From positions 179,862,001 to 179,926,000 of the forward strand of contig OZ024742.1 in assembly GCA_964016885.1 (NCBI GenBank): a DNA stretch of 64,000 bases, written 5' to 3'. Under the pieces are notes generated by a model. It was not told the DNA's origin and did not search any database. It saw only the letters and a program-made list of their open reading frames with translations. This document shows positions 11,255 to 62,800 of this stretch, piece by piece. The stretch comes from Eledone cirrhosa. Its lineage: Eukaryota. Position numbers and translations under genes: made by a program. How positions within the stretch are numbered: the stretch's first letter is position 1; each line of letters opens with the position of its first letter.

Positions 11255-11257
<3 letters not shown>

Positions 11258-11420: not shown

Positions 11421-11505
11421 GTATATATATATGCATATATCTATATGTATATATATATGCATGTATATATAAGTATATGTATATGTATATATATATGCAT
11501 ATACA
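11258..11505. repeat. (TA)n microsatellite
   Basis: Directly visible. Confidence 0.95.
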
Positions 11506-11509
11506 TAGA

Positions 11510-11985: not shown

Positions 11986-12042
11986 ACATGCATATATATA
12001 TAATATATATGTATATATATACGTATAAATATATATGTATAT

Positions 12043-15704: not shown

Positions 15705-16277
<573 letters not shown>

Positions 16278-18003: not shown

Positions 18004-19169
18004 ATTATATACATGCATATATATATTTATGCATAAATACATACATGCATATATGTAAACATAATTGCATGCATGTTGTTGAACTTCTGAGAATTCCAGT
18101 CGACCAAATAATGAAGCAACCTACTCGGTAAATGTATATCCAAGTGGCTGAGCATTCTACAAATACGTGCATTATTAACGTAATTCTCAGGGAGATTCAG
18201 CATGACACCCCCACCCACTCTCCTATATATACATGAAAAGATTCAGGACCCCAACGGCTGAGCTATGGCCATTTCGAGTTCGGATCTAGCCGGCGTCCTG
18301 AATCTGTTCATATTACCCACTCTACTACTCAAAGTATTGAGTACTCTCGTGCGTTATGGTCCACTTGGTATCTTACCACACCCACTTTGTTATATATATA
18401 TATATATATAATCAGTTACAACAGTGGCATTACACAGATACACACGTTTCGTTGGGTTTAACATGAACTCATTCAGTCTACCATAACTTCCAGGAAGATT
18501 TTTGATTATGTATGAGAGTCCTAAAGGTAAGGGTGAAGATCTCAATTAATTTATTAATTCGTAGTTAAACTCTATATATGTAAGGAAGAAAATTCTAAAA
18601 AGAAGAAAAAGGGGAGTACTTGTGTGCAGAAAGATGGCACATAACATAGGGTTAAATCTGCTTTTTGTTCAGCCTAGACCATATTTTCCAAACAGAATTT
18701 TGATTTGTGTGGACAATGATTTAAGAAATCCTGGCATATATTTAGGTAGTGTTTTCTTTAGAAGACAATTGTGAAAGTATATTTGGATGGTACATAGATA
18801 ATAATTTTCACTCGATTATAACAGAACAAAAACTTATTTATGTATGTGTGCAATAAGTATGTGCATGAAGGATGAAGCACAGAGGAATTGGAAGGAGATG
18901 CTTTGAAAGTGTAGTAACTAGAATAAGAATAGGGTGGTAAAATTTCAGGGCACTACTATTTTTGTTGGCAACAATTGATTCTCTTTCCACATGATTTGAT
19001 GGATAGATTACATGGAAATCTGTGTATGTAGTGCAATGCTATATGGAAGAGAGTTGTGGGCAAATTGTTGAGGATATATGAAGCCTAGAAAGTAATGAAC
19101 TGAGCATGCCCTATTGGATGTGTATTCCCAGAGACAGATACATCTTTATGCATCAGAGAACAAATACAC

Positions 19170-23300: not shown

Positions 23301-24300
23301 TAACTACCACAACCACCAACATAACCACCACAACAACCAACATAACCACCAACATAACTACCACAACCACCAACATAACCACCACAACAACCAACATAAC
23401 TACCAACATAACTACCACAATCACCAACATAACCACCACAACCACCAACATAACTACCACAACCACCAACATAACCACCACAACAACCAACATAACCACC
23501 AACATAACCACCACAACCACCAACATAACCACCACAACCACCAACATAACCACCAACATAACCACCACAACCACCAACATAACTACCACAACCACCAACA
23601 TAACCACCACAACAACCAACATAACTACCAACATAACTACCACAACCACCAACATAACCACCACAACAACCAACATAACCACCAACATAACTACCACAAC
23701 CACCAACATAACCACCACAACCACCAACATAACCACCACAACAACCAACATAACCACCAACATAACTACCACAACCACCAACATAACCACCACAACAACC
23801 AACATAACTACCAACATAACTACCACAATCACCAACATAACCACCACAACCACCAACATAACTACCACAACAACCAACATAACCACCAACATAACTACCA
23901 CAACCACCAACATAACCACCACAACAACCAACATAACCACCAACATAACTACCACAACAACCAACATAACCACCAACATAACCACCACAACCACCAACAT
24001 AACCACCACAACCACCAACATAACCACCAACATAACCACCACAACCACCAACATAACTACCACAACCACCAACATAACCACCACAACCACCAACATAACT
24101 ACCACAACCACCAACATAACCACCACAACAACCAACATAACCACCAACATAACTACCACAACCACCAACATAACCACCACAACAACCAACATAACCACCA
24201 ACATAACTACCACAACCACCAACATAACCACCACAACAACCAACATAACCACCAACACTACCATGAGTGCATCAATAAATATTAATCCCACCACCATAAC
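20386..24300. repeat. 3.9-kb minisatellite of 21-nt (ACCACCAACATAACYACCACA) and 12-nt (ACCAACATAACY) units
   Basis: Directly visible; all unit lengths are multiples of 3. Confidence 0.96.
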
Positions 24301-25727
24301 AAGACCATAAAGGTTATTCTTTCTTCATGTCTCTCCAACCATACCAGGATACAATCACACAATAAACACTGATAAATGTTTGGCAGATTAAATTAATGTT
24401 AACCATTGAAAAATCAATAATAAAAAATACATTGTATCAATTAGTTGACTGAATAATTAATTAGTAATAATCAAATATAATTTTAATGGCAAGAGATGGA
24501 AATGGTGGAATGGGTAGAGAAGACTGTAGGTGTGGTGTGAGAATATGGGAGCTAAGTGAAGATGGAAATTAATTACACAAACATATTTTTCATTAAATAA
24601 ATACTAAATCACAGAGGTTAATTCCTCAGAGACGGCGTCTGCATAAAAACAATAGTTAAGTTAGTACCAAAAGTGAGCATAAAAAATTTAATTAGTTGAA
24701 ATTGTACAAATGTTGTTTTCGTCATCGTCATTGTCATCGTCTTCATCATCATCGTCGTCTTCATCGTCATTCTATATCCATTTTCCATGCTGGCAAGAGT
24801 GGAACAGGTTATGACTGTCCAAGGCTACTTGGACTTGAAAGCCAGGTCTTGATTATATGTTTCACTTTTGGCATATTTTCTATAGACAGATACCCTTCCA
24901 AACACCAACTTCTTTACAAAGTGTACTTGGTGTATTTGATCATGGCACTATCACTATCACTTACAGAGCACAGTGGGTGCATTTTATCATAGTAACAGCA
25001 CTGCTACTTTACAGCGTGTTCTATGTACATGTTATTGTTTCATCAGCACTAACACTTACATAGTGTTATGGGTGCATTATATTGTGGCACTAGTAATACA
25101 GCTTAATATATATAAGTAGATTTTTTTTATACTCATTTTATTAAATGTTAACACTATTTTTTTCTCTCTGATTTATAAATTCTAATATGCTAATCTATTT
25201 ATGTATAGTATTGTACATCTGTTAAGAATTCTCTTTTCACTACTTTAGAAAGAAAAATAAATTTGCCTCTATATATATGGATACATCTTGACCCCCATCA
25301 CCATCATCATCATCATCATTTTGCATCTGCCTTCCATGCTGGCATGGGTTTGGACATTCCGTCATGTTCCAAGTGCAGATGGGTGCAGCAACCTGACTTG
25401 TCATTGTTTCTATGCCAACTTTTTTACAAGGTTTATTGGATACATTTTTTCATAGCACCAATATATATACAGATTATATACCTCTAGCATGGAAGATAGA
25501 CGTTAAACGATGATGATGATGATGATGATGATGTTTCATGTGTGTATGTGTGACATCAACACTAAGACTTTACTAGGTATACTGGGTGTGTGCTTTTTTT
25601 TTTTTTGTTTTTATGCATACTCATAAGTGTTGGACATTTATGTTATAATTAATTACTTTTTCTTTATAGACACACACATATATATACATACATACATGTG
25701 TACAAATGTATATAGACACACACACAC

Positions 25728-25780
<53 letters not shown>

Positions 25781-25820
25781 ATATATATATAGAATATATA
25801 TATACAATATATATAGAAAG

Positions 25821-28234
25821 TTGAAGCATGTTCTACAACGTGAGGACCAAAAACGTGAGGTGTTCAGGATTGCCAGGCAATGTGTCAAGGAAAACCGTGA
25901 TATTGTCGGGGAGAAGTGTGTGCTTAACGATGATGGCATACCTGCCATCACCGACGCTGATAAGAAGGTAGCTTGGAAGTGTCACTACGAAAGGCTTCTA
26001 AATGAGGAGAACAAATGGGAGAAAGACAGTCTCCCCCACATCGACCCAATAGAGGGACCAGCAGTGTTAGTCCAGGGTAGTACAATAAGCAAGGCAATCA
26101 AAGATATGAAGACGGGTAAGGCGGCTGGTCCTTCGGAAATAGTTGCTGAGATGCTGAAGGCATCTGGTTCGGTGGGACACACCATGGTCACCCGGATAGT
26201 TAACCAAGTCGTACAGAATGGGGTTGTTCCGAAGGACTGGCGTAGCAGCATCATCGTTAACTGCTATAAGGGAAAAGGAGATGCCCTAGATAGGAGTAAC
26301 TATAGAGGCATTAAATTAATCGACCAGGTCATGAAGGTCACGGAAAAAGTAATAGCGCAACTAATCAGAGAGAGAATTGATCTAGATGAAATGCAGTTCG
26401 GATTTGTGTCAGGCAAAAGTACCACAGACGCTCTTTTCATTGTACGACAACTACAGGAGAAGTACCTAGCTAAAAGTAAACCCCTATACTTAGCTTTCAT
26501 CGACTTGGAGAAAGCCTTCGACAGAGTCCCCCGTTCCATTATCTGGTGGTCTCTTAGAAAACTAGGTGTTGACGAATGGCTTGTGAGAGCTATACAAGCC
26601 ATGTATAAAGAAACAGTCAGTAAGGTTAGAATTAACAACGAATATAGTGAAGAGTTTAGCGTAAAAGTTGGTGTCCATCAGGGCTCTGTTCTTAGCCCCC
26701 TACTATTTATTATTGCCCTTCAGGCTATAACAGAGGAGTTCAAGACCGGCTGCCCATGGGAACTCCTATACGCAGATGATCTAACGCTCATAGCTGAATC
26801 AATGACCGAACTAGAGAAGAAATTCCAAACATGGAAGCACGGCCTAGAATCAAAAGGCCTTAAAATTAACCTGGCTAAGACTAAAGTTCTAGTTTGTAGG
26901 AAAGAAAATAAGGCGGGAGTCCCATCTGGGAAATGGCCATGCTCAGTGTGTAGGAAAGGCGTAGGTAGAAACTCCATTTTATGTCCCAAATGCAAAGTAT
27001 GGGTGCATAAAAGATGTAGTGGGATCACAGGTAAGCTAACTAAGAACTTAGATTTTACATGTGGCCGGTGCTCTGGTGCAATAAGTAGCAGCAAGGGCCC
27101 ACAAAATACTAGCTCCTTCAACTGCGCAGAGGGTTCTATAGAAATAGTGGACAGCTTCCGTTACCTGGGTGACAAAATCAGCAGTGGGGGAGGGTGCTCT
27201 GAAAGTACAGTAGCTAGAGTCAGAACTGGATGGAAAAAGTTCAGAGAGCTTATACCATTATTAGCCGCTAGAGGGTTCTCCCTAAAAATGAAAGGCAGGT
27301 TATACGATGCCTGCATACGAACAGCAATGCTGCATGGCAGTGAGACCTGGGCATTGTGTGCAGAGGATATACGCAGACTGGAGAGGAACGAAGCTTGCAT
27401 GCTCCGCTGGATGTGCAATAGTAATATACGTGAACGGCAAAGCATAAACGAACTAAGGAAAAAATTAGAAATAAGAGGGATCAGATGTTGTTTACTCGAG
27501 AGAAGGCTACGTTGGTACGGTCACGTGATGCGCATGAAAGACGACAGCTGTATAACAAAGTGCAGGGCAATAAAGATAGACGGTAGCCACGGAGTAGGCA
27601 GACCCAGAAAAACATGGGACGAGCTGATAAATTCCGACCTCACACGCTTACACCTCTCCAAGACAATGTCACTGGACCGAGACCTTTGGCGGTACTCAGT
27701 AATAGAGAAGACCCGCCTTACCTAAATACAAAGTAAAAACCTACTACAGTCAGTAGGCATCTCTATCAACCCCCCCCGTCCCACCACCTCCACCCCATCC
27801 ACACCGCCCCTTTCAATGTACAGTTATGTTGGTCCCACAACATCCAGGCCGAAACAAATGAGATCGTGTAGGTGTCACGACAAAAAAACACACAGTCCAC
27901 GCTGTAAATGTGGCCGTGTAGGCAACACGGTAAAAACCTCCCAGCCCCACACTGTAAATGTGGTTGGTGTTAGGAAGGGCATCCAGCTGTAGAAAACCCG
28001 CCAGACAGTCCACGCTGTAATGTGGCCGTGTAGGCAACACGGTAAAAACCTCCCAGCCCCACACTGTAAATGTGGTTGGTGTTAGGAAGGGCATCCAACT
28101 GTAGAAAACCCGCCAGACAGTCCTATGCGAGCAAGACAACCACTCTTGCCTCAAGTGGGAAAACCCCCGTCCAAACCCATGCAAGCGTGGAACACGGACG
28201 CTAAACCTGATGATGATGATGATGATGATGATGA
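25821..28234 (+). mobile_element. RTE-clade LINE, 5'-truncated (no APE domain): intact 634-codon RT frame, 3' UTR, (TGA)n tail
   Basis: KGKGD..DRSNYRGIKL, QFGF..GKSTTDA, FIDLEKAFDRVPR, GVHQGSVLSPLLF, YADD, HGSETW, RRLRWYGHV.R, GRPRKTW. ~113-bp tandem duplication in the 3' UTR (27893-28122). Sits in a TA/TG tract. Confidence 0.95.
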
Positions 28235-30880: not shown

Positions 30881-32074
30881 GTAACTTTAGCTTCTGAGTT
30901 TGTTAGAAAATATTCTTATATAATTGAATAGGCGCTACATATACTAGCTGTTTAAAAGAATGCATTGTTAAGCAGAATTCTATGAGAACAACTTAACATA
31001 TGGAATAATAAGTCAGAAATGCCCACCTTATAATCAAAAGACATGAATCTTGAAACTCACCTCCTAGAAATATATCAACCCGACTAAAGCCGAGTAGTTC
31101 TATAAAATGTAGCCATCCTTCTTAAAATTCTATTAAAATTAAAATCTTCCAGTATAATTTCATTTAAAACCCATATGTTATGTTATGCTACAAATACCAT
31201 TTTGTTAATGAACTAATTAATAATTTTGGTATATACTCCAAATTTTTCATTATTTAATTAAAATGCAGTTTATTTCATTAGAAATATGGTAATGAAAGTG
31301 GTAAATAAATAATAATTTCCAATGTCTAATGAAATCTGATGCTACTAACAGTAAGAACTCAAACAAAATATACACATCTTCAGAAAAGATAACGGAAACT
31401 GCATGAACTAAATCAATATGCTAAGCTTTCAATAAACAGACAAAAATACAGGAAAGCTAACAAGCACCTATCATAACATGAAGATAAATAATAGCCACAA
31501 AGCATTAGCTGGATAATGCAGTGTAGTGTTTTATAAGATGCAGAGCAAGCATAACCCTTAAGTACCATAAAGGAAACTTTATCATAATTCCCAAATACAG
31601 GCTATTCATTCCTGCTATGAGGGAGTTTTGGAAAATTAGCATTAATGATAACATTAGAAATACCATTGGATTGGAACAATAGAATAGTATCAATGCAGTT
31701 TAGTAGGATTAATGATAACAACAGATGGAATGTCATTCAATTCACCCAATTCAATACTATAGAATACTATATATCAATTTCTAAGACCTTCCTTTTCAAG
31801 GCCTGGGATGTAGAAAGATACATTTCTGATATTGATGATAGTGATGTCAACATAATCTTACCTGTCAGGAAATTGCTTCTTTTCATAGATTCTGCATGTG
31901 GAATAGACACTATCTATCTGATATGCTTTCTCAGAGTGGAGGTCCACAATCTGGTTGGCTTATTCATCTTTGATAAACCAAATTGAGGCATATCACTTTA
32001 TGCAGAGGCTTTTATAGAAATGATGGCTTAGCTATCTCTAATAACATAAATGAGCATATTTTTGATAAAATAAA

Positions 32075-32540
32075 CAAATAGTATACTAGACCTGAAAAAT
32101 GCGCAAGCTCAAAAGAGCCACAGAATGCTATAATAAACCTTCAAAAGTGTGGGACTAAAGTTGTTGCTAAAAAATATTGTAATCATTATCTATCGTACAC
32201 TCTGTGGCATCCTTTTATAAAAAAGAGACTCATAATGAACTCAAGACGACACGATAATTATTTAAGCTAATGTTCAATATCTCATATTAGATGTTTAGTA
32301 ATGATTAATACGAAATGCACTTAAACCGAATTCTATATTATAAATTCACTTAAATAATGATCGTGTCGTCTTGAGTTCGTTATGAGTCTCTTTTTTATAA
32401 AAGGATGCCATAGAGTGTACGATCGATAATGATTACAATATTTTTGAGCAACAACTCTAGTCCCACACTTTTGAAGGTTTATTATAACATTCTGTGGCTC
32501 TTTTGAGCTTGCGCATTTTTCAGGTCAAGTTTAATATTTT
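32075..32540. mobile_element. Fold-back MITE-like palindrome, ~190-bp arms and ~80-bp spacer
   Basis: 32089-32266 is the reverse complement of 32349-32526 with few mismatches. No HHR core seen and not in a (TA)n tract. Confidence 0.75.
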
Positions 32541-32982
32541 TTTAAGGCAACGCTTGTAATAACTCTAGTTAAACATGATATATATTAATAATAAATTATC
32601 GTTGTAATGCAATTAAATTATATAATTGTTATTTTATAAATGATCTTATAAATATTATTGTAAGATGTATAAAAATATTTTCAGACTTTTAATATAAACA
32701 ACTAAAAAAAACAATCAATATTAAATAAATATATTTTACATAATAATTGTTATAGTTGAATTAATAAAAATTAAATATTACATACAAATAGTCTAACATA
32801 ATAATAACAAAAATAATCTAACAATAATAATAAAATAATCTAACATAAAATGAACAATAATATGGACAAATATACAAGTAAATATGATACAACCAATATT
32901 ATAAGCATGTTATAACGAACTGAAAAAAAAAATAGTTAATATAAATTTAAAAAATCATATATAAATTAATAATATAACTTAC

Positions 32983-41540: not shown

Positions 41541-41612
<72 letters not shown>

Positions 41613-41617
<5 letters not shown>

Positions 41618-42897
41618 ATACTTTTGGAGGGTCATGTTGCCAATAAGAAACACACGCACCTGTTGCTTTCACTTCAATTTATTCTAATAAATTTATAAAT
41701 TTAGGAATTTATAAATTTCAGGTTGGTTGGTTGGTTCCACAACCAGATGGTTGTTTATATATTATCAAAGTTCTTTCGTCACACATTCTGTGACTGGGGA
41801 TTCCTTTCTTTGTTTCTGTGCCTCTCCTTTGTTCTGTCCTACGCCATTTTGTTTCTGTGTGTGTGTTGTGTGCTCAGTCTGCGCATGCGCCACATCCGGG
41901 TGTCTGTGTGTGTTTATATTCGTTTATTTATTTGTTTATTTACATGTTACAGGTTGGTTGTTTGTTCTATGTGCGTGTGTGTTTTCATTTTGTCCTTAAT
42001 TGTAAGTTGTGTTGTTGCTGTTCCAGTCATGTTTTCTATTTAATTTTGGTTGTAATTCTTTTATATTTATTGCCTCTGTGATTTGTCTAAACATTGCGTC
42101 TTTTCTGTGTGTAGATTCTATTTTTATTTCTATGTTCTCTAATTTACCCTTATGTTCTATTTTAGCATGTTGGTAGAGTACAGATGATTCTTTACTATCT
42201 TGAAGGTCTCGCCAGTGTTCATTTATCCGTTCCCCTACACTACGAGCTGTCTCACCTATGTACACTATATTTTTGTCTCTACATTGTCCTTCAATACATC
42301 TTATGCTATATACTACATTTCTAGTTTTACAATTAATATGGGGGCTTAATTTACAGGTTATACATTTCTTATCTTTACAGGGGGGTCTTTGAAAAGGGTA
42401 TGTCTTGCTAATAAGTATTTTTACGGAGGTACCTGGTCTTTCTACTATCTTAATATTGAGTTTATGTTTATCTAGCGCCCTTCTAAATTTGTAAGCTAAT
42501 TCACCTCTAGGGGTTATATAGATGAACATTACACTCTGGTATTTATTGCTTTCATACCATGAGTTTATTCTATTAGCCTTATTCCTAGTTCTTTCTATTA
42601 TATTCCAAAATTTGCTCCTATACAAGGGGCAGGTCCGATTTGTATCATTATTTACCATTTTTTCCCATTTGGTTTTGGCTCCTCTATACACTCTGATTTT
42701 ATCTCTCTGATTGTAACCATAGAACTGCATACAGTGGATGAAGTGTTGCATGTGTCTCTCTAGTTCTTCGAGGTTGCACATGCGGGACACCTTTCTCATC
42801 ACTCGTACCAAATCCACAATCAGTATGTTGATTTTGGTATGGTCCGAAACAGCTGAGTTTCTGTGGATCAGATATTTGGAAGTCATGGGAATGGAGG
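41613..42897 (-). mobile_element. Penelope-like element, 5'-truncated: RT C-terminal region, GIY-YIG endonuclease (ORF 41996-42886) and pLTR
   Basis: C..C..C...NCKTRNVVYSIRC....C....VYIGETARS..ERINEH...L..H....H...R.I.EA..I....PKLNRK; flanked by (TA)n. Confidence 0.92.
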
Positions 42898-43040
42898 ATT
42901 ATATATATATATTATATATATTATATATATATTATATATATATATATATATATAGTAATAATAATAAATTTGAAGACTAAAATCCAAAGAGAGCTCGATA
43001 AGGAGAAATATATATCAAGTATATAAGAACCGTAGAGCAA

Positions 43041-43151
43041 ATATTTATTAAAATAACAGATTAAAGTTTAAGCAAAAGTTTCAGAAGATCCCGTTAAGGG
43101 TGAAAGCAGCGATTCTTTGCTTAAACTTTAATCTGTTATTTTAATAAATAT
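43041..43151 (+). ncRNA. ~35-bp perfect hairpin capped by a degenerate hammerhead core
   Basis: Arms 43041-43075 / 43116-43151 enclose CAGAAGA-t-ccc(gttaa)ggg-t-GAAA-gcagc. Confidence 0.55.
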
Positions 43152-43169
43152 ATATATATTATATATATA

Positions 43170-43752
<583 letters not shown>

Positions 43753-43908
43753 GGTAAGATATTCCGGATTGAATCGGAGGTAACCACAGGAAGTAAGGTA
43801 CTCAATACATTGCAGAGTATGACAGTTTTAATATAGATGAGATTCTACAAGACTAGAAATGTTTCATGAAACAGTTCTAGTCCTGTAGAATCTCATCTAT
43901 ATTAAAAC

Positions 43909-43957
<49 letters not shown>

Positions 43958-44088
43958 AAAGTTATATTTAAATTGTTGGGTTACAACTAGTAAATATTTA
44001 TAACTGATATAAAAGCACTCAACAAGTATTTGGGGTATATTTACGATATTAAATAAATGGAAACATAGTTTCCAATTATTTAATATCG

Positions 44089-44186
<98 letters not shown>

Positions 44187-44228
44187 TGTATTTATTAAAA
44201 TGACAGCTTAAAGTTTAAGCAAAGAATA

Positions 44229-44299
<71 letters not shown>

Positions 44300-44313
44300 T
44301 ATATGTATATATC

Positions 44314-44367
<54 letters not shown>

Positions 44368-44368
44368 A

Positions 44369-44403
<35 letters not shown>

Positions 44404-44406
44404 TAT

Positions 44407-44448
<42 letters not shown>

Positions 44449-44461
44449 GTATATATATATG

Positions 44462-44492
<31 letters not shown>

Positions 44493-44523
44493 GTATATAT
44501 ATATATATATATGTATATATATG

Positions 44524-44556
<33 letters not shown>

Positions 44557-44653
44557 GTATATATATATGTATATATATATATATATATTAAAATATAGAG
44601 AAAAATACTGCAGGTAGCACATGGATAACATGTAATAAAATAAGTCCCTCATC

Positions 44654-44697
<44 letters not shown>

Positions 44698-44850
44698 TTA
44701 ATATAGATGAGATTCTACAGGACTAGAACTGCTTCATGAAACATTTCTAGTCCTGTAGAATCTCATCTATATTAAAACTGTCATACTCTGCAATGTATTG
44801 AGTACCTTACTTACTGTGGATACCTCCGATTCATTCCGGAATAACATATC
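43753..44850. mobile_element. Two mutually inverted mini fold-backs (43753-43910, 44695-44850) of the 29395 family around (TA)n
   Basis: Each is tail plus a hairpin centred on ttcatgaa; the sequences match 29878-29987. Confidence 0.8.
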
Positions 44851-44867
44851 TATATATATATATACAC

Positions 44868-44955
<88 letters not shown>

Positions 44956-44956
<1 letters not shown>

Positions 44957-45500
44957 AAATATTAAACAAATAATGAATAAAACAATGAAACAGTTCCTTA
45001 TATTAAACAAAAAAAGTTCATTATTTAACGATCGTTTCTAGGATATATATGTGTTAGAATTGGCATGCATATTCAACAGATCTATGTACAAAATTATACA
45101 AAATTATACAAACTATCAAGATTAAATATACATACCAAACACACATATACGCCGTCTTCAGAAGACGGCGTATATGTGTGTTTGGTATGTATATTTAATC
45201 TTGATAGTTTGTATAATTTTGTATAATTTTGTACATAGATCTGTTGAATATGCATGCCAATTCTAACACATATATATCCTAGAAACGATCGTTAAATAAT
45301 GAACTTTTTTTGTTTAATATAAGGAACTGTTTCATTGTTTTATTCATTATTTGTTTAATATTTTATCTTGACTCTGTATACCGTTTATCTTTCACCGAAA
45401 GTGATTTTTCATTACATCTCTTCCTTCCATGATATCCGGAATACATTGAGTTCTTCATACGGATTGGACACTACCGTAAACTCTTGGTAGATTTATCTAC
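44956..45500. mobile_element. Perfect ~410-bp palindrome (centre ~45161) plus ~135-bp tail, with a truncated HHR
   Basis: Centre cgccgtcttc-a-gaagacggcg; arms contain GAAA-cgatcg-TT; minus strand has CTGAAGA at the centre. Confidence 0.8.
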
Positions 45501-45625
<125 letters not shown>

Positions 45626-45632
45626 GATATAC

Positions 45633-45663
<31 letters not shown>

Positions 45664-45664
45664 C

Positions 45665-45779
<115 letters not shown>

Positions 45780-45786
45780 GATATAC

Positions 45787-45817
<31 letters not shown>

Positions 45818-45818
45818 C

Positions 45819-45944
<126 letters not shown>

Positions 45945-45951
45945 GTGTGTA

Positions 45952-45994
<43 letters not shown>

Positions 45995-46000
<6 letters not shown>

Positions 46001-46750
46001 GACGTAAACAAGAAAATTATGAAATTCGACTTACTAAAATTTGTTGGAATGAAATTTTAGAAAGTAAGTCAATTTTCATAATTTTCTCATTTACGTCTTT
46101 CATATAATTGTTCTGCATCCCCTTGCATAGAACCACAGAGTTACTAAGACAAAACATATATATTTGCTAGATCAGGTATGCATCTGTATGCATATGTTGG
46201 TAGATATACTAATTATTTATAATTAACTCCAAATTATTTGTTGAGCAAAACATCCCGAAATTACTACTATGGTTCATGGTAGTGGCTAGGCTCTTGTCTT
46301 ATTTACACTCCACTCCTCACTGATTAACCTCAGTGTCACGTGATTGATTGTTTTGAATTTGCCACTGACCAAGTAGGCAGTGAATTTTTTCAATGTCTTG
46401 GAATTTAGTCCCCGCTCGCTTTTTCCCATCCACTGAATTATTTTTATATAAGTTCCCAGTGTCCTCGCATTGTTTGGGAACTTAGCTGAGAATAGACTCC
46501 CTGATGACGTAAGGTTTCTCTGTGGATACGTTCCGTAACCATATTTATTCTTTTACAGAAACTAATTAGTTGGAGTGAAATTTTAGTAAGTAAGTCGATT
46601 TTCCTAATTTTCTTATTTACGTCTTTCATATAATTGTTGTGCATCCCCTTGCATAGAACCACAAAGTTACTAAGACAAAACATATATATTTGCGAGAGCA
46701 TAGGTATGCATCTGTATACATATGTTGGTAGATATACTAATTCTTTATAT
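45995..46750 (+). mobile_element. HHR-bearing family C: short inverted piece plus ~1.3 copies of a ~525-bp unit (HHR 46496-46576)
   Basis: 46063-46220 is repeated at 46588-46750; actcc-CTGATGA-c-gtaagg...ttttac-a-GAAA-ctaattag-TT-ggagt. Confidence 0.86.
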
Positions 46751-46767
46751 ATATATATATATGTATG

Positions 46768-46874
<107 letters not shown>

Positions 46875-47037
46875 GTATATATATATATGTATATATATAT
46901 ATGTATATATATATATGTATATATATATATATGTATATATATATGTATATATATGTATATGTATATATGTATATATATATATATGTATATATATGTATAT
47001 GTATATATATATATGTATATATATATATGTATATATG

Positions 47038-47084
<47 letters not shown>

Positions 47085-47087
47085 GTG

Positions 47088-47123
<36 letters not shown>

Positions 47124-47125
47124 TG

Positions 47126-47270
<145 letters not shown>

Positions 47271-47276
47271 ATATGT

Positions 47277-47362
<86 letters not shown>

Positions 47363-47363
<1 letters not shown>

Positions 47364-49445
47364 GTTTAGCGAGGTTTTTTTATATGAAATCGTGTGTCGA
47401 AACAAATATTGTTATACTTGGGGAGGGTCATATTTGTGAAATATTGCCAGAATTAATAACAGAACACACTCACTGTTTGGTTGGTTTTCGCTTCTCGCTG
47501 TCTTTTATATCTGCGATCTAACTTAATCGGTCCTCAATGTTGCCATTGACTGACCGACGGTCAAAAATAATACAGATACAATATAGACACAAACACATAT
47601 ATATAGTTTACATAATTTACATAAATCTTTCGCTGCACATCTGCAACATCGTCAGTGGTATTATATTTTTTCCTCCTGTTGTGTTGTATGTCTACGCCAT
47701 TTTTTATTCAGTCTGTCTATATATTTATTTATTTATTTGCTTGTTTGTTTATTTTATTTTGTCTTCTTTGCGCATGCGTTTGCGTGTGTGTACAGTGTTG
47801 TGTGTGCTGTGTGACTAGTGTGTATAGTGTTGTGTCTGCTGGGTGACTAGTGTGTGTTTATGTGCTTGTTGTTATTGTGCTTGTGTATGTATTTATTTAT
47901 CTTATTTTATTTTATTTTATTTATTTACTTATTTATACTTCTCTTAGGTCAGTGTTGTTTGTTTGGGTGTTGTTGTTGTTCCACTCATTCTTTCTGTTTA
48001 GCTTTGGTCTTCTAATTTCTATTTCACTGGCCTCTCTGATTTGCCTATTCGCTGGGTCATTCCTATGTTTAGATATTATTCTAATTTCTATGTTGTCTAT
48101 GTTACCGTCATGTTGTTTTCTAGCATGTTCGTATAGTACTGACCCGTTATTTCGTCCTTTTAGTTCCCCCATTGTTGGTCTATCCTTTCACCTATGCTAC
48201 GAGCTGTCTCACCTATGTATGTTGTTGTCATGTTTCTGCAAGTACCCTCTGTACATCTTATGCTATAGACTACGTTTCTAGTTTTACAGTTTATCCGGGG
48301 GTTCACCTTACATATGATACATTTCCTATTGGTACAGTGGGTTTTCTTAAAAGGGTAGGTTTTGCTGATCAGGGATTTTATGGTGGTTCCTGGCTTTTCT
48401 ACCACCTTTATTTTTAAGTGGGTCTTTCTCAGGGCCTTTCTACACTGGTTAGCTAATTTCCCTCCAGGGGTGGCGTCCACAAACATGACACTCTGATATC
48501 TCTGGTTGTCGTACCATGATGTGGCCTTCCCTATCTAATGTCTAGCCCTATCTAAGCTATTCCATGATTTGCTCCTGTATAGTGGGCAAATTCCTTTCAT
48601 GTCCAGTTCTATGAGGGTCTTATACTTTTCCATGGCTCCTTCGTATACTCTGACTCTGTCTCTTTGGTTGTAGCCAGAGAACTGCATGCGGTTGATGAAG
48701 TGTTGGATGTGTCTTTCCATTTCTGTAGGGTCGCACATGCTGGACACATTCTTCATCACTCGTACCAAATCTGCGATCAGAATATTAAACTTAGCACTAC
48801 TGGACAGATAGGCAAATCAGAGAGGCCAGTGAAATAGAAATTAGAAGACCAAAGCTAAACAGAAAGAATGAGTGGAACAACAACAACACCCAAACAAACA
48901 ACACTGACCTAAGAGAAGTATAAATAAGTAAATAAATAAAATAAAATAAAATAAGATAAATAAATACATACACAAGCAAAATAACAACAAGCACATAAAC
49001 ACACACTAGTCACCCAGCAGACACAACACTATACACACTAGTCACACAGCACACACAACACTGTACACACACGCAAACGCATGCGCAAAGAAGACAAAAT
49101 AAATAAACAAACAAGCAAATAAATAAATAAATATATAGACAGACTGAATAAAAAATGGCGTAGACATACAACACAACAGGAGGAAAAAATATAATACCAC
49201 TGACGATGTTGCAGATGTGCAACGAAAGATTTATGTAAATTATGTAAACTATATATATGTGTTTGTGTCTATATTGTATCTGTATTATTTTTGACCGTCG
49301 GTCAGTCAATGGCAACATTGAGGACCGATTAAGTTAGATCGCAGATATAAAAGACAGCGAGAAGCGAAAACCAACCAAACAGTGAGTGTGTTCTGTTATT
49401 AATTCTGGCAATATTACACAAATATGACCCTCCCCAAGTATAACA

Positions 49446-49447
<2 letters not shown>
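47363..49447 (-). mobile_element. Penelope-like element: 5'-truncated disrupted ORF (47933-48795) with a ~640-bp inverted pLTR (47406-48046 / 48808-49447) and ~43-bp tail
   Basis: NCKTRNVVYSIRC...YIGETARSIGERI, paralogous to 41996-42886; stop and frameshift; classical PLE inverted-repeat layout in (TA)n. Confidence 0.92.
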
Positions 49448-49496
<49 letters not shown>

Positions 49497-49562
49497 AATA
49501 TATATATATATGTATATATATAAATATATATATATGTATATATATAAATATATATATATATG

Positions 49563-49604
<42 letters not shown>

Positions 49605-49620
49605 AATATATATATATATG

Positions 49621-49674
<54 letters not shown>

Positions 49675-49703
49675 TATATATATATGTATATATATAAATA
49701 TAT

Positions 49704-49783
<80 letters not shown>

Positions 49784-49799
49784 ATATATATATGTATAT

Positions 49800-50112
49800 T
49801 AGTGATCCCCTCTTGCTTCTCAACATTCTCTACCAGATATTTTGTTTTAGTCTCATTCATTCTCAACCCCACACTCATCGACACAGTCTCAACCTCCCGC
49901 ATCAAATCGTCTGCCTCCTTCACTGTATTTGTCAATTTGTCACCAAAACTATGTCGTCGGCAAATTCAGCATCCGATACCTTTTTCGCCCTAACTCTCCT
50001 GCTCTGAGCCGGTGCTACAGTAAAGCCAGAGTCCTGGTGTTTCTCCAGTGCAAGGCGATGATAAAAAGTTAGGGAGCCAATGTAACTCTCTGGAGCACTC
50101 CAGCCAGTATGT
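49800..50112 (-). mobile_element. RTE-like RT internal fragment
   Basis: [25 protein letters not shown]. Confidence 0.75.
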
Positions 50113-50149
50113 CAATATGTATATATATATATGTATATATATATATATT

Positions 50150-50606
50150 TCGTTCCTGAATTTGTTTAGCAAGATTCTTTATCTGAAAACGTGTGTTGAA
50201 ACCGTTATTGTTATTCTTTGGGAGGGTCATGTTGCCAATAAGAAACACACGCAATTTATTATAATAAATTTACACGCAATTTATTATAATAAATTTAGAA
50301 ATCTAGAAATTTATAAATTTCCGGGTGGTTGGTTGGTTCCACAACCAGATGGTTGTTTATATATTGTCAAATTTCTTTCGTCAGACAATCTGTGACCTCT
50401 TCAGTAACTGGGGATACTTTTCTTTGTTTTTTGTGCCTCTCCTTTGTCCTGTCCTACGCCATCTTTTGTTGTATATATTATATATATATATGTATATATA
50501 TATGTATATATATATATGTATATATATGTATATATATGTATATATATATGTTTATGTATATATATATGTATATGTATGTATATATGTATATATATATATG
50601 TATATA

Positions 50607-50669
<63 letters not shown>

Positions 50670-51172
50670 GTATATGTATGTATATATATATATGTATGTA
50701 TATATATATATATGTATATATATATATGTATATATATATGTGTATATATGTATATATATATATATGAATGTATATATATATGTATATATATATGTGTGTA
50801 TATATATATGTATATATATGTATATATATATATGTATATATATATGTATTAGTCTTGCGAGGTTAAAGAGACTAAATAAAGTTGGCGTAGAAAATACAAT
50901 GCAACGGGAGGAAACAATACCACCACTGACGATGTTGCAGATGTGCAACAAAAGAACTTTGATAAACTATATATATGTGTTTGTGTCTATATTGTATCTG
51001 TATTATTTTTTTATCGTTGGTGAGTCAGTGGCAACATTGAGGACCGAATAAATTACATTACCGATATAAAAGACACAGAAGCGAAAAGCGAAAACCAACC
51101 ATACACTGAGTGTGTTCTGTTATTAATTCTGGCAATATCACACAAATATGACCCTCTCCAAGTATAACAATA
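50150..51172. mobile_element. Two Penelope pLTR pieces in opposite orientation separated by (TA)n
   Basis: 50200-50472 matches 41613-41850; 50865-51172 matches 40310-40610. Confidence 0.78.
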
Positions 51173-51230
51173 TATATATGTATATATATATATATATTTA
51201 TATATATTTATATATATATGTATATATATG

Positions 51231-51280
<50 letters not shown>

Positions 51281-51298
51281 AATGTATATATATATATG

Positions 51299-51350
<52 letters not shown>

Positions 51351-51372
51351 TATATAAATGTATATATATATG

Positions 51373-51456
<84 letters not shown>

Positions 51457-51463
<7 letters not shown>

Positions 51464-52477
51464 CGTAAATAAGAAAGTTATAAAAATTGACTTACTTACT
51501 AAAATTTCACTCCAACTAATTAGTTTCTGTCAGGGGATAAATATAGTTACGTAATAACTATAGAGAAGCCTTACATCATCAGGGAGTCTATTCTCAACTA
51601 AGCTTCCAGGCAATGCGGGGACACTGGCAACTTATATAAAAATAATTCAGTAGATGGAAAAAAGCGAGCGGGGCTAGATTCCAGGACACTGAAAAATTCA
51701 CTGCCTTCTTGGTCAAGTGGCAAATTCAAAAGAATCAATCACGTGACACTGAGGTTTACCAGCTTGGAGTGGGCGTGCTATTAAGACAGAGCCTAGCCAC
51801 TACTATCAGTCACAGTAGTAATTTCGGCATATTTTGCTCAACAAATAATTTGGAGATAATTATAAAGAATTAATATATCTACCGACATATGTATACTGAT
51901 GCATACCTATGCTAGCAAATATATATGTTTTGTCTTAGTAACTTTGTGGTTCTATGCAGGGGAATGCACAACAATTATATGAAAGACGTAAATAAGAAAG
52001 TTATGAAAATTGACTTACTTACTAAAATTTCACTCCAACTAATTAGTTTCTGTAAGGGGATAAATATAGTTACGTAATAACTATAGAATTTGAATTTGCC
52101 ACTTGACCAAGAAGGCAGTGAATTATTCAGTGTCCTGGAATCTAGCCCCGCTCGCTTTTTTTCAGCCACAGAATTATTTTTATATAAGTTGCCAGTGTCC
52201 CCGCATTGCCTGGAAGCTTAGCTGAGAATAGACTCCCTGATGACGTAAGGCTTCTCTATAGTTATTACGTAACTATATTTATCCCCTTACAGAAACTAAT
52301 TAGTTGGAGTGAAATTTTAGTAAGTAAGTCAATTTTCATAACTTTCTTATTTACGTCTTTCATATAATTGTTCTGCATTCCCCTGCATAGAACCACAAAG
52401 TTACTAAGACAAAACATATATATTTGCTAGCATAGGTATGCATCTGTATACATATGTCGGTAGATATATTGATTCTT

Positions 52478-52480
<3 letters not shown>
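51457..52480. mobile_element. HHR-bearing family C: 1.2 minus-strand units then an inverted copy (HHRs 51509-51587 minus, 52232-52310 plus)
   Basis: actcc-CTGATGA-c-gtaagg...ccttac-a-GAAA-ctaattag-TT-ggagt; period ~523 bp. Confidence 0.87.
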
Positions 52481-52544
<64 letters not shown>

Positions 52545-52835
52545 GTATATATATATGTATATATGTATATATATATACATATATGTGTATATATATATGT
52601 ATATATATATGTATATATATATATATGTATATATATTTATATATATATATATGTATATATATGTATATATATATATATATATGTATATATATGTATATAT
52701 ATATGTATATATATATGTATATATATATATATGTATGTATATATATATATATATGTATATATTTATATGTATTTATATATATATGTATATATATATGTAT
52801 ATATATATATGTATATATATATGTATATATATATG

Positions 52836-52866
<31 letters not shown>

Positions 52867-52905
52867 GTATATATGTATATATATATATATGTATATATAT
52901 ATGTG

Positions 52906-52950
<45 letters not shown>

Positions 52951-52954
52951 CTAT

Positions 52955-54590
52955 GTATAAGTATGTATACGTACATACATATATGTATACAGACGTACAG
53001 TAGTATGTATATACATGCACACATATATATATATGTACGTATGGATTCACCAAACATTTATTATAATGCTCGGTGTGTTTGTAAAACAACACCCCGTATA
53101 AAGCCGTAGTGTCTAGCAACCATCGTTGCTCGTTTGTTCAACACTGACAAAGGAACGCTGTACTAGTTTCAAGCTTGTTAGCTATCGTCAGCAACGTATA
53201 CCTTCCTGCCAGATTGTTGAACGTCTGAAAGTATATACTTTCCTTATGCATATTAACGGCTGAGTAGCCCAATTTGCATATCGAGTGGGTTAATCGGCTG
53301 GGTGCACCGAAAACGATAAACAGAAAAAATGAAACGAAATTTCATTTCCCACTCTTAGTACGGCTGTTACTTAAATATAAGTATGTACACGTACATACAT
53401 ATATGTATACAGACGCACAGTAATATGTATATATATATACATACATGCACACATATATATATGTACGTATGGATTCACCGAACTTTTATTATAATGCTCG
53501 GTGTGTTTGTAAACAAACATCCCGTATTAAGCTGTAGTGTCTAGCAACCATCGTTGCTCGTTTGTTCAACACTGACAAAGGAATGCTGTACTAGTTTGAA
53601 GCTTTTTAGCTATCGTCAGCAACTTATACCTTCCTCCCAGAGTGTTGAACGTCTGAAAGTATATACTTTCCTTATGCATATTAACGGCTGAGTAGCCCAA
53701 TTTGCATATCGAGTGGGTTAATCGGCCGGGTGCACCGAAAACGATTAACGGAAAAACTGAAACGAAATTTCATATTTAAGTGACAGCCGTACTAAGAGTG
53801 GGAAATGAAAGTATATACTTTCAGGCGTTCAACAATCTGGCAGTAAGGTATACGTTGCTGACGATAGCTAATAAGCTTGATACTAGTACAGCGTTTCTTT
53901 GTCAGTGTTGAACAAACGAGCAACGATGGTTGCTAGACACTACGGCTTAATACGGGATATTTGTTTACAAACACACCGAGCATTATAATAAATGTTCGGT
54001 GAATCCATATGTACATATATATATGTGTGCATGTATCTATATATATATACATACTACTGTATGTCTGTATACATATATGTATGTACGTGTACATACTTAT
54101 ATTTAAGTAACAGCCGTACTAAGAGTGGGAAATGAAATTTCGTATCATTTTTTTCCGTTTATCGTTTTCGGTGCACCCGGCCGATTAACCCACTCGATAT
54201 GCAAATTGGGCTACTCAGCCGTTAATATGCATAAGGATAGTATATTCTTTCAGACGTTCAACAATCTGGCAGGAAGTTATACGTTGCTGACGATAGCTAA
54301 TAAGCTTGAAACTAGTACAGCGTTCCTTTGTCAGTTTTGAACAAACTAGCAACGATGGTTGCTAGACACTACGGCTTAATACGGGATATTTGTTTACAAA
54401 CACACTGAGCATTATAATAAATGTTCGGTTAATCCATACGTACATATATATATGTGTGCATGTATGTATATATATATACATACTACTGTATGTCTGTATT
54501 CATATATGTATGTACGTGCACATACTTATATTTAAGTAACATCCGTACTAAGAGTGGGAAATGAAATTTCGTTTCATTTTTTTCCGTTTA
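52955..54590. mobile_element. Second locus of family B (~430-bp unit): ~2 minus-strand then ~2 plus-strand copies, slightly diverged
   Basis: HHRs at 53155-53197(-, intact), 53583-53625(-, GAAA to CAAA), 53852-53894(+, GAAA to GATA), 54281-54323(+, intact). Confidence 0.9.
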
Positions 54591-54614
54591 TATATATATA
54601 TAAACGTATATATA

Positions 54615-55171
54615 TATATGATAAAAATAGTCCTTCGTCAGTGATTTGCCAACCATCATTGATATTTCATCGCATTAAAAATAATATACCTCAGGTTGGT
54701 GCGAGCAATAGCTAAATAAAGCTATTGGGACAAGTAAATCGCGTAAAGCGAGTGAGACAAGTAAACAACATAGAAGGATGAAAGCAACGCAAAGATGGGA
54801 ATAAACAAGCAACATGGTTATCCGGTCAGCATAAGCTGGGTGGATTTCATGAGCGATCGTGATAGAGACCGTCCGACGTGAGCGAGATGTGAGCAAGAAG
54901 AGAACCCACTAGTAGCCAAACGGGAGGAAGTGAGAAGGGAGAAACAGAGAGAGAATGAGTGGAAGTGCGAGGAAGAGGTCAGTCGAGAGAAAGTGTAACT
55001 GTCAGAGGGGGAGAAAGAAGGTGAGAGCAACAGAGAGAACGGGGAAGCAGTAAGAGAGAAACAGACAAACGCAGCCGAGGTAAATATATATAAAAAACAT
55101 GAGAACAAAGAAGAATACTGCGTGGTTGCACATGGGTTACATATGATAAAAATAGTCCTTCGTCAGTGATT
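54615..55171 (-). mobile_element. ~525-bp unit with ~30-bp terminal direct repeat carrying CTGACGA; pLTR-like
   Basis: atatgataaaaatagtccttcgtcagtgat at 54616 and 55141; similar sequence at 44600-44657. Confidence 0.55.
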
Positions 55172-55185
55172 ATATATATATATAC

Positions 55186-55217
<32 letters not shown>

Positions 55218-55281
55218 GTATATATATATATATATACGTATATAGATATATATAAACGTATATATATATATATATATAAAC

Positions 55282-55386
<105 letters not shown>

Positions 55387-55522
55387 GGAAACACACATAT
55401 AGAAAGAACTGTGGTAAACAAATGAATAACGAACAATAAAGATATAGTGAAAATAATATGTTCCCTGTGTTTCTTTCTATTGGCAATATTGGTAACATGA
55501 CCATCCCCAAATATAGCAATAT

Positions 55523-55592
<70 letters not shown>

Positions 55593-60055: not shown

Positions 60056-62462
60056 GTTAAATGGTTAAAAAGAAAGCAACAGCAAATTAGGAAAAAAAAA
60101 ACATGTTTACATCAAAAGTGAGTATTCTTGATTTTAACATTACTTTCACAAGAAACAACTTCTAAAATGAAATATAGAAGTGATTGGATGGTGTAGAAAA
60201 TATGATTAGATTTTGTGTAGCAGATTTGGTCATAGATGTAAAGTAGATTAAACCTGATGTTGCTCTATAATCTATTGTTGAATAATCTCTAATTATATAC
60301 TGTTGCATGAAACATCAAAGAAATGTCAGCTTTTAGCATACAAACTTACTATGATGGTTTAAAAAAGAAATAAACAGCAAAAAGAGAAGATCAGATTTCC
60401 TTTGTGAAGTATGCATAGGTTGACAATACGGGATCAAACATTTTCACTGTCTTCTCTGTGTCTATCTCTTGTATTCTACAAATTATCTAATCATTTTAGC
60501 TAGCATTTCATTGGTACCAATGTGTTGGCTGGGTCAAAACATTTGCAATAATTCTCTGGCGAAGCATATCACTCTAAATCTGATGATGCACCATAGAAAA
60601 GTAGAGGAGCAATGCCATCCAGTGCCCATCCTTGAGCACTGGATGGCATTGAATTGGGCCTGAATCACTCAATGCACTAGGTCAATCTGGCCCCACAATG
60701 CATTTCAACTTTATTTAGTGCAGTGATTATCTGCCTTTAAATTGTGACCATTGCTGCTGCGAGATTTACAAAAAATTGAAAATGGGTAAACAAATAAAAC
60801 TGTAAAACAATAAATAATAAATTAATAACAATAAAAATGTTATGGAGTCTCCCTTGTTTAGGGCAAAGACTGATGACCTATGTCCCCTTTGTAATAAAAA
60901 TTATAACAAACAATGATTTAAATATGAGAAAACAACAAACATGCGAGAGCTTACAATTGCGCATCTGAACAAATCAATAACAATAGCAACAACAATAAAT
61001 AATGGTTTCTTATATAGGCACAAGGCCAGACATTTTTTTGGGAGGGGGAAGTTGATTAAATTGACCTCAGTGCGTGACTGGTACTTTATTTTATCGACCC
61101 CGTAAGGATGAAAGGCAAAGTTGACCTCGGCGGGATTTGAACTTAGAACATATGGGGTCTTAACTCTATGCCACAAAGCATGTTGTCTGACTCTCTACCA
61201 ATACTGCTAATCTACAGCCCTGGTGGTAATGATAATAATAATTGGTCGAATCATCAGTGACTAAACCGGCAACTCCACCAAGCTTGCTTCATGAGGAGGG
61301 TGATGTTTGGACACCCTGCTGGATGAAAAACAAAACCCTTTAAAGGGTGGAGGAACTCAGGAGATTCAACAGCCATCCAGGCATTTGTAAAATCTCCAGT
61401 TGCAGAGTACAAAATACTGGATTGGTGACCATCACAGGATAGCTCACTTCAATTTTAAGGTTTGAGGGCCGCTTAAAGTCGCTTACATCACCTTCTAGAA
61501 ATGGTGTTTCAACAAAAAACACTAACCTCAATGAGTGAAATGAATAAACAGCAGAAATGTTATTTTTATGAAGTGTTTTTCCTCATTAATTTTTTCCTGT
61601 TTATTTATTTACATAGCTTTTTCATAGATTTGATTTATTGGTGGAATTTCAAGAATGCAAAAGACAAAGTATAAAAATGTATACATTCTTTGGCAGATAA
61701 ACAAATCATGTGAAAGAAGTTGCCTGGTGTTGTGGCAGTGATAGTAGTGGTGGCATTGGTGGTGTTGATGGCATTGTTGATGGTGTTGGTGTAACAGTTT
61801 GGGCTGTGTGCATTCTATTGTGGTACCATCACTACCACTTTTCAACACCTGGGTACTTGTATTCTCAACCAGGCTGTGAGCGAAAAGGAGTATGCTACAT
61901 GTTTCTAATTGAGGGAGGTGGTGAGTGGGAGAGGTGCTCCTAAAGAGCCAGCCAACCATTATAATTTTATATAAGAATCTTTGTTAATTTTTGTTCCAAT
62001 CACCAGCTTAATATTGGTTTCTGATTTAAGCACAAAGTCAACACTTTTGACCCCAGCACATTACTGGTGCTTTATTTTATCAACCCTGTTAGTATGAAAG
62101 ACAAAGCTAACATGAGTAGCATTTAAACCCATAAGGTATAGTGCCATAACTATATGTCACAAAGCATGTCGTCTGATGCCCTACCAATACAGCTAACCCA
62201 TTGCCTTACATCAACTTAATAATTGTTTCTACTTTTGGCACAAGGCCAGCAATAATCCCCGTGTATTACTGGTACTTTATTTTATCAACCTCGTAAGGAT
62301 GAAAGGCAAAATTAACCTCGGTGGAATTTGAACTCAGACGATAAAAAGCCGCAACTCTTTGCTGTAAAGCATGGCTTCCGACGCTCTGAATTGTATTACT
62401 AATCCCCTCCGAATTCTTGGTTATTTCCAAAAGAATTTGAAAATTTGAATATCATAGGCAAT

Positions 62463-62800
62463 GGAGTCACATGGCTTAGTGGTTAGAGCAATGGCCTTGC
62501 AATCGAAAAGTTGTGAGTTCAATTCTCAGACCGGGTGATGTGTTGTTTCCTTGAGCAAGACACTTTATTTCACATTACTCCAGTTTACTCAGCTGTAGAA
62601 ATGAGATGCTAGGGACTGGGGTCCATATCATTCCACTGCAAAGTGGTCGTGGAGGTGCCACGGCAAAAAAAGCACCCAGCACTCACTGTAAATGAGGTTG
62701 GTGTTAGGAAGGGCATCCAGCTGTAGAAATCAAGCCAGAATCAGTTCCTGTCTCACCCTGGCAAGCAGGGAAAAAAAAGTGGACATAAAATAAAATGAAT
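62463..62800 (+). mobile_element. Third copy of the tRNA/RTE-tail SINE
   Basis: Near-identical to 15941-16277. Confidence 0.88.

Follow-up and report, generated by a model that had tools for sequence, protein, structure and literature searches.

The window is a 64,000-nucleotide stretch of Eledone cirrhosa DNA that holds many inserts between TA tracts. Two of these, B1 and B2, are the only loci of family B within the window. In both, a 424-nt unit carrying a minimal type I hammerhead forms two inverted arms, placed head to head. Unit positions are numbered starting at the cut predicted for the hammerhead (after window position 7160), and the two recurrent end points are called the short and the long terminus.

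B2 has a left arm on the minus strand (52956–53771), which starts at unit ~248 and ends at the short terminus (unit 214–217), and a right arm on the plus strand (53772–54591), which runs from unit 215–217 to the long terminus (unit 275–277). Each arm holds about 1.9 units. The arms meet at an inversion junction with a 2-nt AT microhomology (53770–53772), and the right arm begins at the point where the left arm terminates. The right arm lacks ~101 nt (unit 254–354) at 53807–53810, the gap falling between two GAAA words. A tail of 60 nt between both termini (54529–54591, plus strand) is present at this end of B2 only. Motif search finds two intact minimal type I hammerheads, at 54281–54323 (plus strand, predicted cut after 54317) and at 53155–53197 (minus strand, predicted cut after 53161); the copies at 53583–53625 (minus) and 53852–53894 (plus) have a core substitution in GAAA. 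To the left of B2 is a TA microsatellite common to B2 and insertion E2 (52478–52955), and to the right is another (54589–54619), followed by insertion K1.

The left arm of B1 (6784–6978, minus strand, 0.46 units) runs from unit 82 to the long terminus (275–277) and includes the tail (6786–6846). The right arm (6978–9922, plus strand) starts at unit 242, continues through 6.9 identical units and ends at the short terminus (214–218); it holds seven intact hammerheads. Unit 82 is thus joined to unit 242 at the junction.

Aligned to the unit, both loci end at the same two points, which are 61 nt apart in B1 and 60 nt in B2, about 215 and 275 nt after the cut, with different junctions and copy numbers. 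The first-pass annotation had described the loci in these terms, and the alignments bear it out. Its locus limits (6785–9920 and 52955–54590) shift slightly, to non-TA limits of 6786–9917 and about 52958–54588, with 3–5 ambiguous TA bases per end. It had also called the ends swapped; B2 is indeed in the opposite orientation, but the swap is not a separate fact, because the reverse complement of B2 has the topology of B1. Inspection for target-site duplication showed both B ends sitting in TA repeats.

The two insertions had been proposed to be independent, and the test for a segmental duplication supports this. BLASTN (dust on) found zero matches between the flanks of B1 and B2 over 2.3–3.5 kb per side, so they are not a segmental duplication. 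The loci differ from each other by 4.5–6.9%, plus an 8-nt indel. The chance of B2 repeating both ends is 1.7e-4 if ends are uniform over the unit, and 0.003–0.004 if they are confined to the 22 TA runs of at least 3 nt in the unit.

There are 0 mismatches among the seven copies of B1. Such identity is expected from rolling on one circle; a multimer of uniform sequence, amplification after insertion or polishing of the assembly could also produce it. The four copies of B2 are 6–8.5% different pairwise, mostly through private changes, and B2 is therefore the older. Both right-arm copies of B2 have 3 substitutions in common that are absent from the left arm and from B1, and both right-arm tail copies carry one extra T that is likewise absent there. 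No other pairing of B2 copies has common variants. These arm-specific variants hint at two templates per insertion. Alternatively, they could stem from conversion between neighbouring copies, and one of the changes is at a CpG.

Ends of other TA-flanked inserts and PLE remnants

Unmasked self-BLAST of the window was swamped by TA repeats, and the masked version was used. We blasted 33 TA-flanked gaps and kept 25 for the end test, namely those with an inverted match or in a family having one. The other eight (starts 9934, 11497, 13462, 13781, 15941, 28245, 28730 and 49794) gave no self-inverted match and no family match. Sixteen of the 25 inserts are two-armed and nine are single-armed or unresolved. 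Fifteen of the two-armed calls come from an end motif repeated on the other strand, and the sixteenth, D2, from family alignment.

Equal ends occur in none of the 16 two-armed inserts. The 15 measured tail offsets are 31, 46, 60, 61, 65, 68, 72, 72, 88, 90, 98, 116, 118, 137 and 208 nt, one of which lies within the published 30–40 bp. In the multi-locus families B, C, D and E, every two-armed locus (9/9) pairs one short with one long end; the count is 8/8 if C2 and C3 are taken once, for which free choice gives 0.5^8 = 0.004. Unequal ends in single-locus families prove nothing about fixed sites. Long ends wobble, by 4 nt in C and between +46 and about +58 in D/G.

Family A (3343–4217) is a 467-nt relative of B. 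The units of A and B are only about 65–78% alike, yet the left end of A aligns with the short terminus of B. The right end of A (unit 21–22) is an exception, not being homologous to the long end of B. C1 (29395–29986) has inverted arms and a 68-nt tail, and C2 (43753–43908) and C3 (44695–44850) have the same short end as C1 and long ends within 4 nt. E2 (51458–52477) is made of a hammerhead tandem unit (~523 nt), with the short end on the left, the long end on the right and a 116-nt tail; E1 (45997–46745) has both of these termini and a 118-nt tail. D2 (50850–51169) joins a ~15-nt long-end arm to a ~306-nt short-end arm.

Families D and G contain coding remnants of Penelope-like elements (PLEs). 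In D1 (47364–49445), inverted arms enclose a broken PLE ORF remnant (thumb and GIY-YIG), and the left end bears a 46-nt tail. G1, a single-armed PLE (41614–42899, minus strand), ends at the D/G short terminus and has a 300-aa open frame (41996–42898). Read in translation, the motifs of this frame are a CX4CxxC linker followed by a GIY-YIG-like domain. Among 374 longer candidates the frame matched a single one, an RT-domain protein of Octopus vulgaris (803 aa), with 58% identity across 218 aa; the RVT_1 hit of this protein (E = 0.004) is below the curated cut-off. The best PDB match of the frame, to intron-associated endonuclease 1, is weak (E = 0.048), and Pfam named no endonuclease domain in three endonuclease-like frames. 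Neptune and Nematis have a CX2-5CxxC linker ahead of a GIY-YIG domain with CCHH (PMC8557442). By its C-terminal GIY-YIG with CCHH and its upstream linker, D/G is a putative PLE of Neptune/Nematis type, the endonuclease call resting on motifs, one homologue and the weak PDB match. The short end of D/G falls ~8 codons and the long end 23–27 codons after an ATG, similar to the rotifer Penelope pLTR, which extends 12 codons, or 22 with the tail (PMC3846280).

Hammerhead repeat and PLE tail

Our motif search for type I hammerheads required stems I and II of at least 4 pairs, CUGANGA, GAAA and NUH. Families A, B and E account for all 14 matches that it returned in the window, and 30 block shuffles gave 0. 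The hammerhead is present in 7/7 right-arm copies of B1 and in 2/4 copies of B2. Rfam at the gathering threshold gave 0 matches over the whole window, so that the hammerhead was missed. With E up to 10 on 6900–7700, Rfam gave 45 matches below gathering, mostly to TA-rich miRNA models; we rejected these as compositional, and none was a hammerhead. An automatic hammerhead alignment of B, A, C and F misplaced C and F, and pair counts were made without this alignment.

The B array has low GC and no frame of at least 120 aa except TA-repeat read-through. With no RT + GIY-YIG ORF, family B was rejected as an autonomous PLE. The predicted fold of the unit RNA has -151.3 kcal/mol (z = -8.45), driven in part by TA-rich self-complementary tracts. 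A tandem 424-nt unit with a type I hammerhead agrees in size with non-LTR retrozymes (about 150–450 bp). Judging from these features, family B is a candidate non-autonomous, hammerhead-bearing tandem retroelement of the non-LTR retrozyme type, with predicted self-cleavage and circularity.

Animal retrozymes form RNA circles, and PLEs have been named as their candidate mobiliser (PMC7229834). Retrozymes also resemble PLE pLTRs, and local amplification of PLE termini has been proposed (bioRxiv 10.64898/2026.07.22.740005). Family B shares with metazoan non-LTR retrozymes the 150–450 bp tandem units with a type I hammerhead in each (PMC7229834; bioRxiv 10.64898/2026.07.22.740005), as well as low GC, a highly self-paired RNA and PLEs in the same genome. 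In having a helix III of one pair and a palindromic loop, its hammerhead resembles the Amex1 motif of the axolotl. These papers tie retrozymes to PLEs through co-occurrence and pLTR homology. Inverted arms and tails are found in B; the available text of the two papers describes none for their retrozymes, and in that of bioRxiv 10.64898/2026.07.22.740005 the words tail, junction, boundary and target site are absent.

The stretch between the two family B termini is the known PLE tail, an identification that follows from published tail descriptions and from two internal start sites in vitro. PLEs insert as partial tandems, which often include an inverted copy truncated at its 5' end; the tail of 30–40 bp often occurs at a single end (PMC8557442). 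Naiads are biased to (TA)n and Neptune to microsatellites; the tail is attributed to EN-mediated resolution, and the formation of tandem and inverted insertions is termed undefined (PMC8557442). The tail has also been described as optional, at one inverted pLTR (PMC3846280). In vitro, a purified anole PLE nicks the two strands of AT-rich DNA and extends each of them, with RT starting in an AC-rich stem-loop at two internal sites, which form the borders of the tail (PMC11167929). The start site is not homologous to the cut DNA, and the strands did not visibly differ in where RT began (Frangieh et al.; PMC11167929). Uncleaved RNA is the main substrate, hammerhead cleavage is dispensable in vitro and a PLE dimer is predicted (PMC11167929).

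The inserts of the window share with EN+ PLEs the inverted 5'-truncated copy, partial tandems, one-ended extension, hammerhead in the repeat and microsatellite bias (PMC8557442; PMC3846280), and in D/G also ends within the first ORF codons. They differ in tail length (30–40 nt published; 60 nt in B and 31–208 nt windowwide) and in that the tail, optional in EN+ PLEs, looks obligatory and strictly one-sided here. B also has no ORF, unlike autonomous EN+ PLEs. Judging by its sequence, the window shares with PAc (Poseidon, Anolis carolinensis; PMC11167929) two tail-bounding internal starts downstream of the hammerhead, AT-rich DNA, probable cutting and extension of both strands and a start in a stem-loop. 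Unlike in PAc, TA microhomology is enriched, each strand apparently uses a site of its own, and the template is non-coding. The non-autonomous Chlamys elements such as MRC1 are likewise PLE derivatives with multicopy head-to-tail insertions, but they are green algal, of the N-terminal-EN clade mostly without hammerheads, and have (CA)n/(C)n targets (PMC8557442).

The core feature, two fixed internal ends, is therefore already published for autonomous PLEs. The window adds a non-coding hammerhead repeat with a PLE footprint, longer tails and an apparently strict rule of one short and one long end. In the open-licence PMC and bioRxiv literature we found no account of a tail on retrozyme arrays, of PLE twin priming, of strict short/long pairing, of 46–137-nt tails or of arm-specific two-template variants. 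The machinery that integrates animal retrozymes has so far been argued from co-occurrence and homology. As a mechanistic fingerprint of PLE enzymes, the tail of a retrozyme array gives evidence that does not depend on homology.

Candidate insertion mechanisms

We consider it likely that family B was inserted in trans by a PLE RT/GIY-YIG protein, probably of Neptune/Nematis type. The B unit would be transcribed as a multimer, and maybe cut and circularised. The PLE protein would nick both strands of a (TA)n tract, as the anole PLE does in vitro on AT-rich DNA. Each nick would prime RT inside the RNA, with the short site serving one strand and the long site, 60 nt away, serving the opposite strand. 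Both the ends and their 3–5 nt of TA pairing are seen; the choice of site would lie with the protein and RNA structure, aided by that pairing. Each cDNA would extend upstream for a variable distance over any number of unit boundaries (arms of 0.46–6.9 units). Joining of both cDNA 3' ends via 1–2 nt of microhomology would then give head-to-head arms and a one-ended tail.

Several observations are in favour of such copying. Both B loci have the same two termini. A one-ended tail beside inverted repeats is a PLE trait, and such a tail corresponds to the stretch separating the two internal RT starts in vitro. The hairpin loop at the B short terminus, the alignment of this terminus with the left end of A and the codon positions of the D/G ends also speak for it. 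The absence of equal ends in 16 two-armed inserts and the short/long pairing at 9/9 loci of B, C, D and E agree with it, and the apparent PLE ORF remnant of D/G shares the two-arm tail architecture. Against it, the B unit has no sequence match to D/G or other window inserts except family A, and so no tie to the window's PLE ORF or pLTR. Also against it are the deviating second end of A, tails mostly above the published length, the long end of D/G at two places, the short-end hairpin in 5/11 families, the sample of two B loci, the nine of 25 inserts that are single-armed or unresolved, and the endonuclease domain left unnamed by Pfam.

The first-pass annotation had claimed that each strand has a defined internal priming site; the fixed ends uphold this and match the in vitro starts (PMC11167929). 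Its preference for an internal start over priming from a ribozyme-made end likewise stands. We rejected priming at the hammerhead cut in family B because the right arm of B1 reads through seven intact hammerhead sites. That the strands did not visibly differ in where RT began in vitro (Frangieh et al.; PMC11167929) does not by itself predict strict short/long pairing.

Integration by PLEs may be obligately asymmetric, an idea we offer tentatively. A dimer would load two RNAs and divide the sites between its subunits, the first always starting at the short one and the second at the long one. On retrozyme circles each would roll independently, whole arrays would be written in one event and each arm would record a different RNA. 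If this is true, the tail is the footprint of the asymmetry, with a length set by RNA structure (46–137 nt across families), and retrozyme arrays are direct genomic records of rolling-circle reverse transcription. The short/long rule and arm-specific variants make countable genome-wide predictions that separate two RNAs from one RNA primed twice and from a folded-back cDNA.

In LINE-1 twin priming, both target strands prime, giving an inverted 5' segment with junction microhomology. The first LINE-1 site is the poly(A) end and the second is variable, whereas both sites are fixed and internal in these inserts. Applied to family B, a single multimeric RNA would be primed twice, the downstream cDNA running to the site primed by the second nick; we think this possible but doubtful. 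The B2 right arm starts at unit 215–217, the left-arm end, a position in keeping with twin priming of one RNA, or with a stall at a tail bound by protein. The arms overlap by 35 nt in B1 and by about 66–68 nt in A and E1, and 3/4 of B arm starts fall inside the 61-nt tail (post hoc P = 0.011). E2 is a misfit, 222–272 nt away, non-tandem arms overlap by hundreds of nt (D1 ~640, L ~407, F ~310), and the three substitutions and extra T of the B2 right arm are absent from its left arm and B1.

A single priming event is unlikely to account for the inserts. Here cDNA from the long site would fold back and be copied as DNA, and the endonuclease would resolve it at the short site, which would be a cut and not a start. 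Symmetric hairpin junctions with near-identical arms at several non-B loci (L 99.8%, D1 99.4%) are as expected, as are the symmetric junctions in C1, C2, C3, L and J, and EN-mediated resolution is the published origin of the tail (PMC8557442). The fold-back, however, requires the short-end arm to be nested in the long-end arm. This fails in B1 (long ~195, short ~2940 nt), D2 (~15 versus 306 nt) and E2 (389 versus 630 nt), barring later trimming deletions in all three. The B2 arms bear arm-specific variants, and both sites are RT starts in vitro (PMC11167929).

The annotation had the priming sites anneal to nicked (TA)n, and this stands in part. At 24 ends, the mean overlap of an insert with its TA flank is 3.2 nt, where the null gives 1.05 nt. 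Under a stricter best-phase null it is 3.5 versus 1.9 nt over 14 independent termini (P = 0.008), or P = 0.04 without the 10-nt outlier of family F. That TA pairing alone selects the sites is nevertheless improbable. The B ends use TA runs of 5 and 3 nt, twice each, and leave the runs of 16, 10, 6 and 6 nt in the unit unused. Overlap is 1 nt at the short end of C in 3/3 loci and at the ends of A, and initiation in vitro is non-homologous (PMC11167929). In a circular fold, the B short end spans the loop of a predicted 6-bp hairpin (210–225), and the long end lies after a predicted hairpin that family A has too. A hairpin at the short end is predicted in only 5/11 families. Folding of 12 segments (one hammerhead and 11 tail regions) gave z < -2.5 in 3/12, so there is no common tail structure. 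We infer that start sites are protein- and structure-directed, with a minor contribution from pairing.

It is very improbable that one ancestral insertion was duplicated, with copy number later altered by unequal crossing-over (or B1 homogenised by assembly): the 0-mismatch copies of B1 fit recent local amplification or polishing, amplification of PLE termini has been proposed (bioRxiv 10.64898/2026.07.22.740005) and C2 and C3, with their common junction, may be such a pair, but B1 and B2 have unshared flanks, different junctions and 4.5–6.9% divergence with the 8-nt indel, and the short/long rule holds in unrelated families too. A DNA foldback or MITE origin was rejected, since ends are unequal in 16/16 and tied to hammerheads and the PLE ORF.

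Neighbouring features of the window

About 18 PLE-like inserts are packed into 14 kb at 41547–55574, with hardly anything between them except TA tracts (up to 600 nt). This packing is repeated insertion into the same microsatellites. Directly beside B2 is family K (54620–55170), a single-armed 551-nt insert with a 26–31-nt terminal direct repeat and a unit of about 525 nt. It has a CTGANGA word at its end, and the motif search found no full hammerhead in it. A 67-nt relative at 44589–44655 ends within 4 nt of the point at which K does. C2 and C3 lie in opposite orientation and are 95% alike; their common symmetric junction falls at the hammerhead GAAA, ~15 nt upstream of the predicted cut, and is either a recurrent stop or a copied composite.

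The insert at 9934–11257 has the 16-nt right TA flank of B1 in common, and a hammerhead-like stretch on its minus strand near 10021 failed the stricter motif search. A second, different PLE-like endonuclease frame (11566–12057, minus strand), with a cysteine cluster and then a GIY-YIG-like stretch, has no Pfam match and overlaps the insert between TA tracts at 11497–11991. A 407-bp palindrome at 44957–45363 has one mismatch, at its centre, and a 137-nt tail, with no hammerhead by motif search. An 87% palindrome at 32071–32544 is without TA-tract flanks and was excluded from the tally. The inner end of the family F left arm (5798–5818) is a run of about 20 A, possibly untemplated.

Elsewhere in the window, a 3.8-kb ACC/AAC-rich tandem array (20465–24257) has several open frames of up to 1322 aa. 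Two LINE-type reverse transcriptase frames were recognised by eye from translations (1–2296 and 25716–27725). A dispersed repeat of 335 nt, SINE-like in appearance, occurs three times (15942–16276, 17668–18005 and 62461–62798) at ~92% identity.
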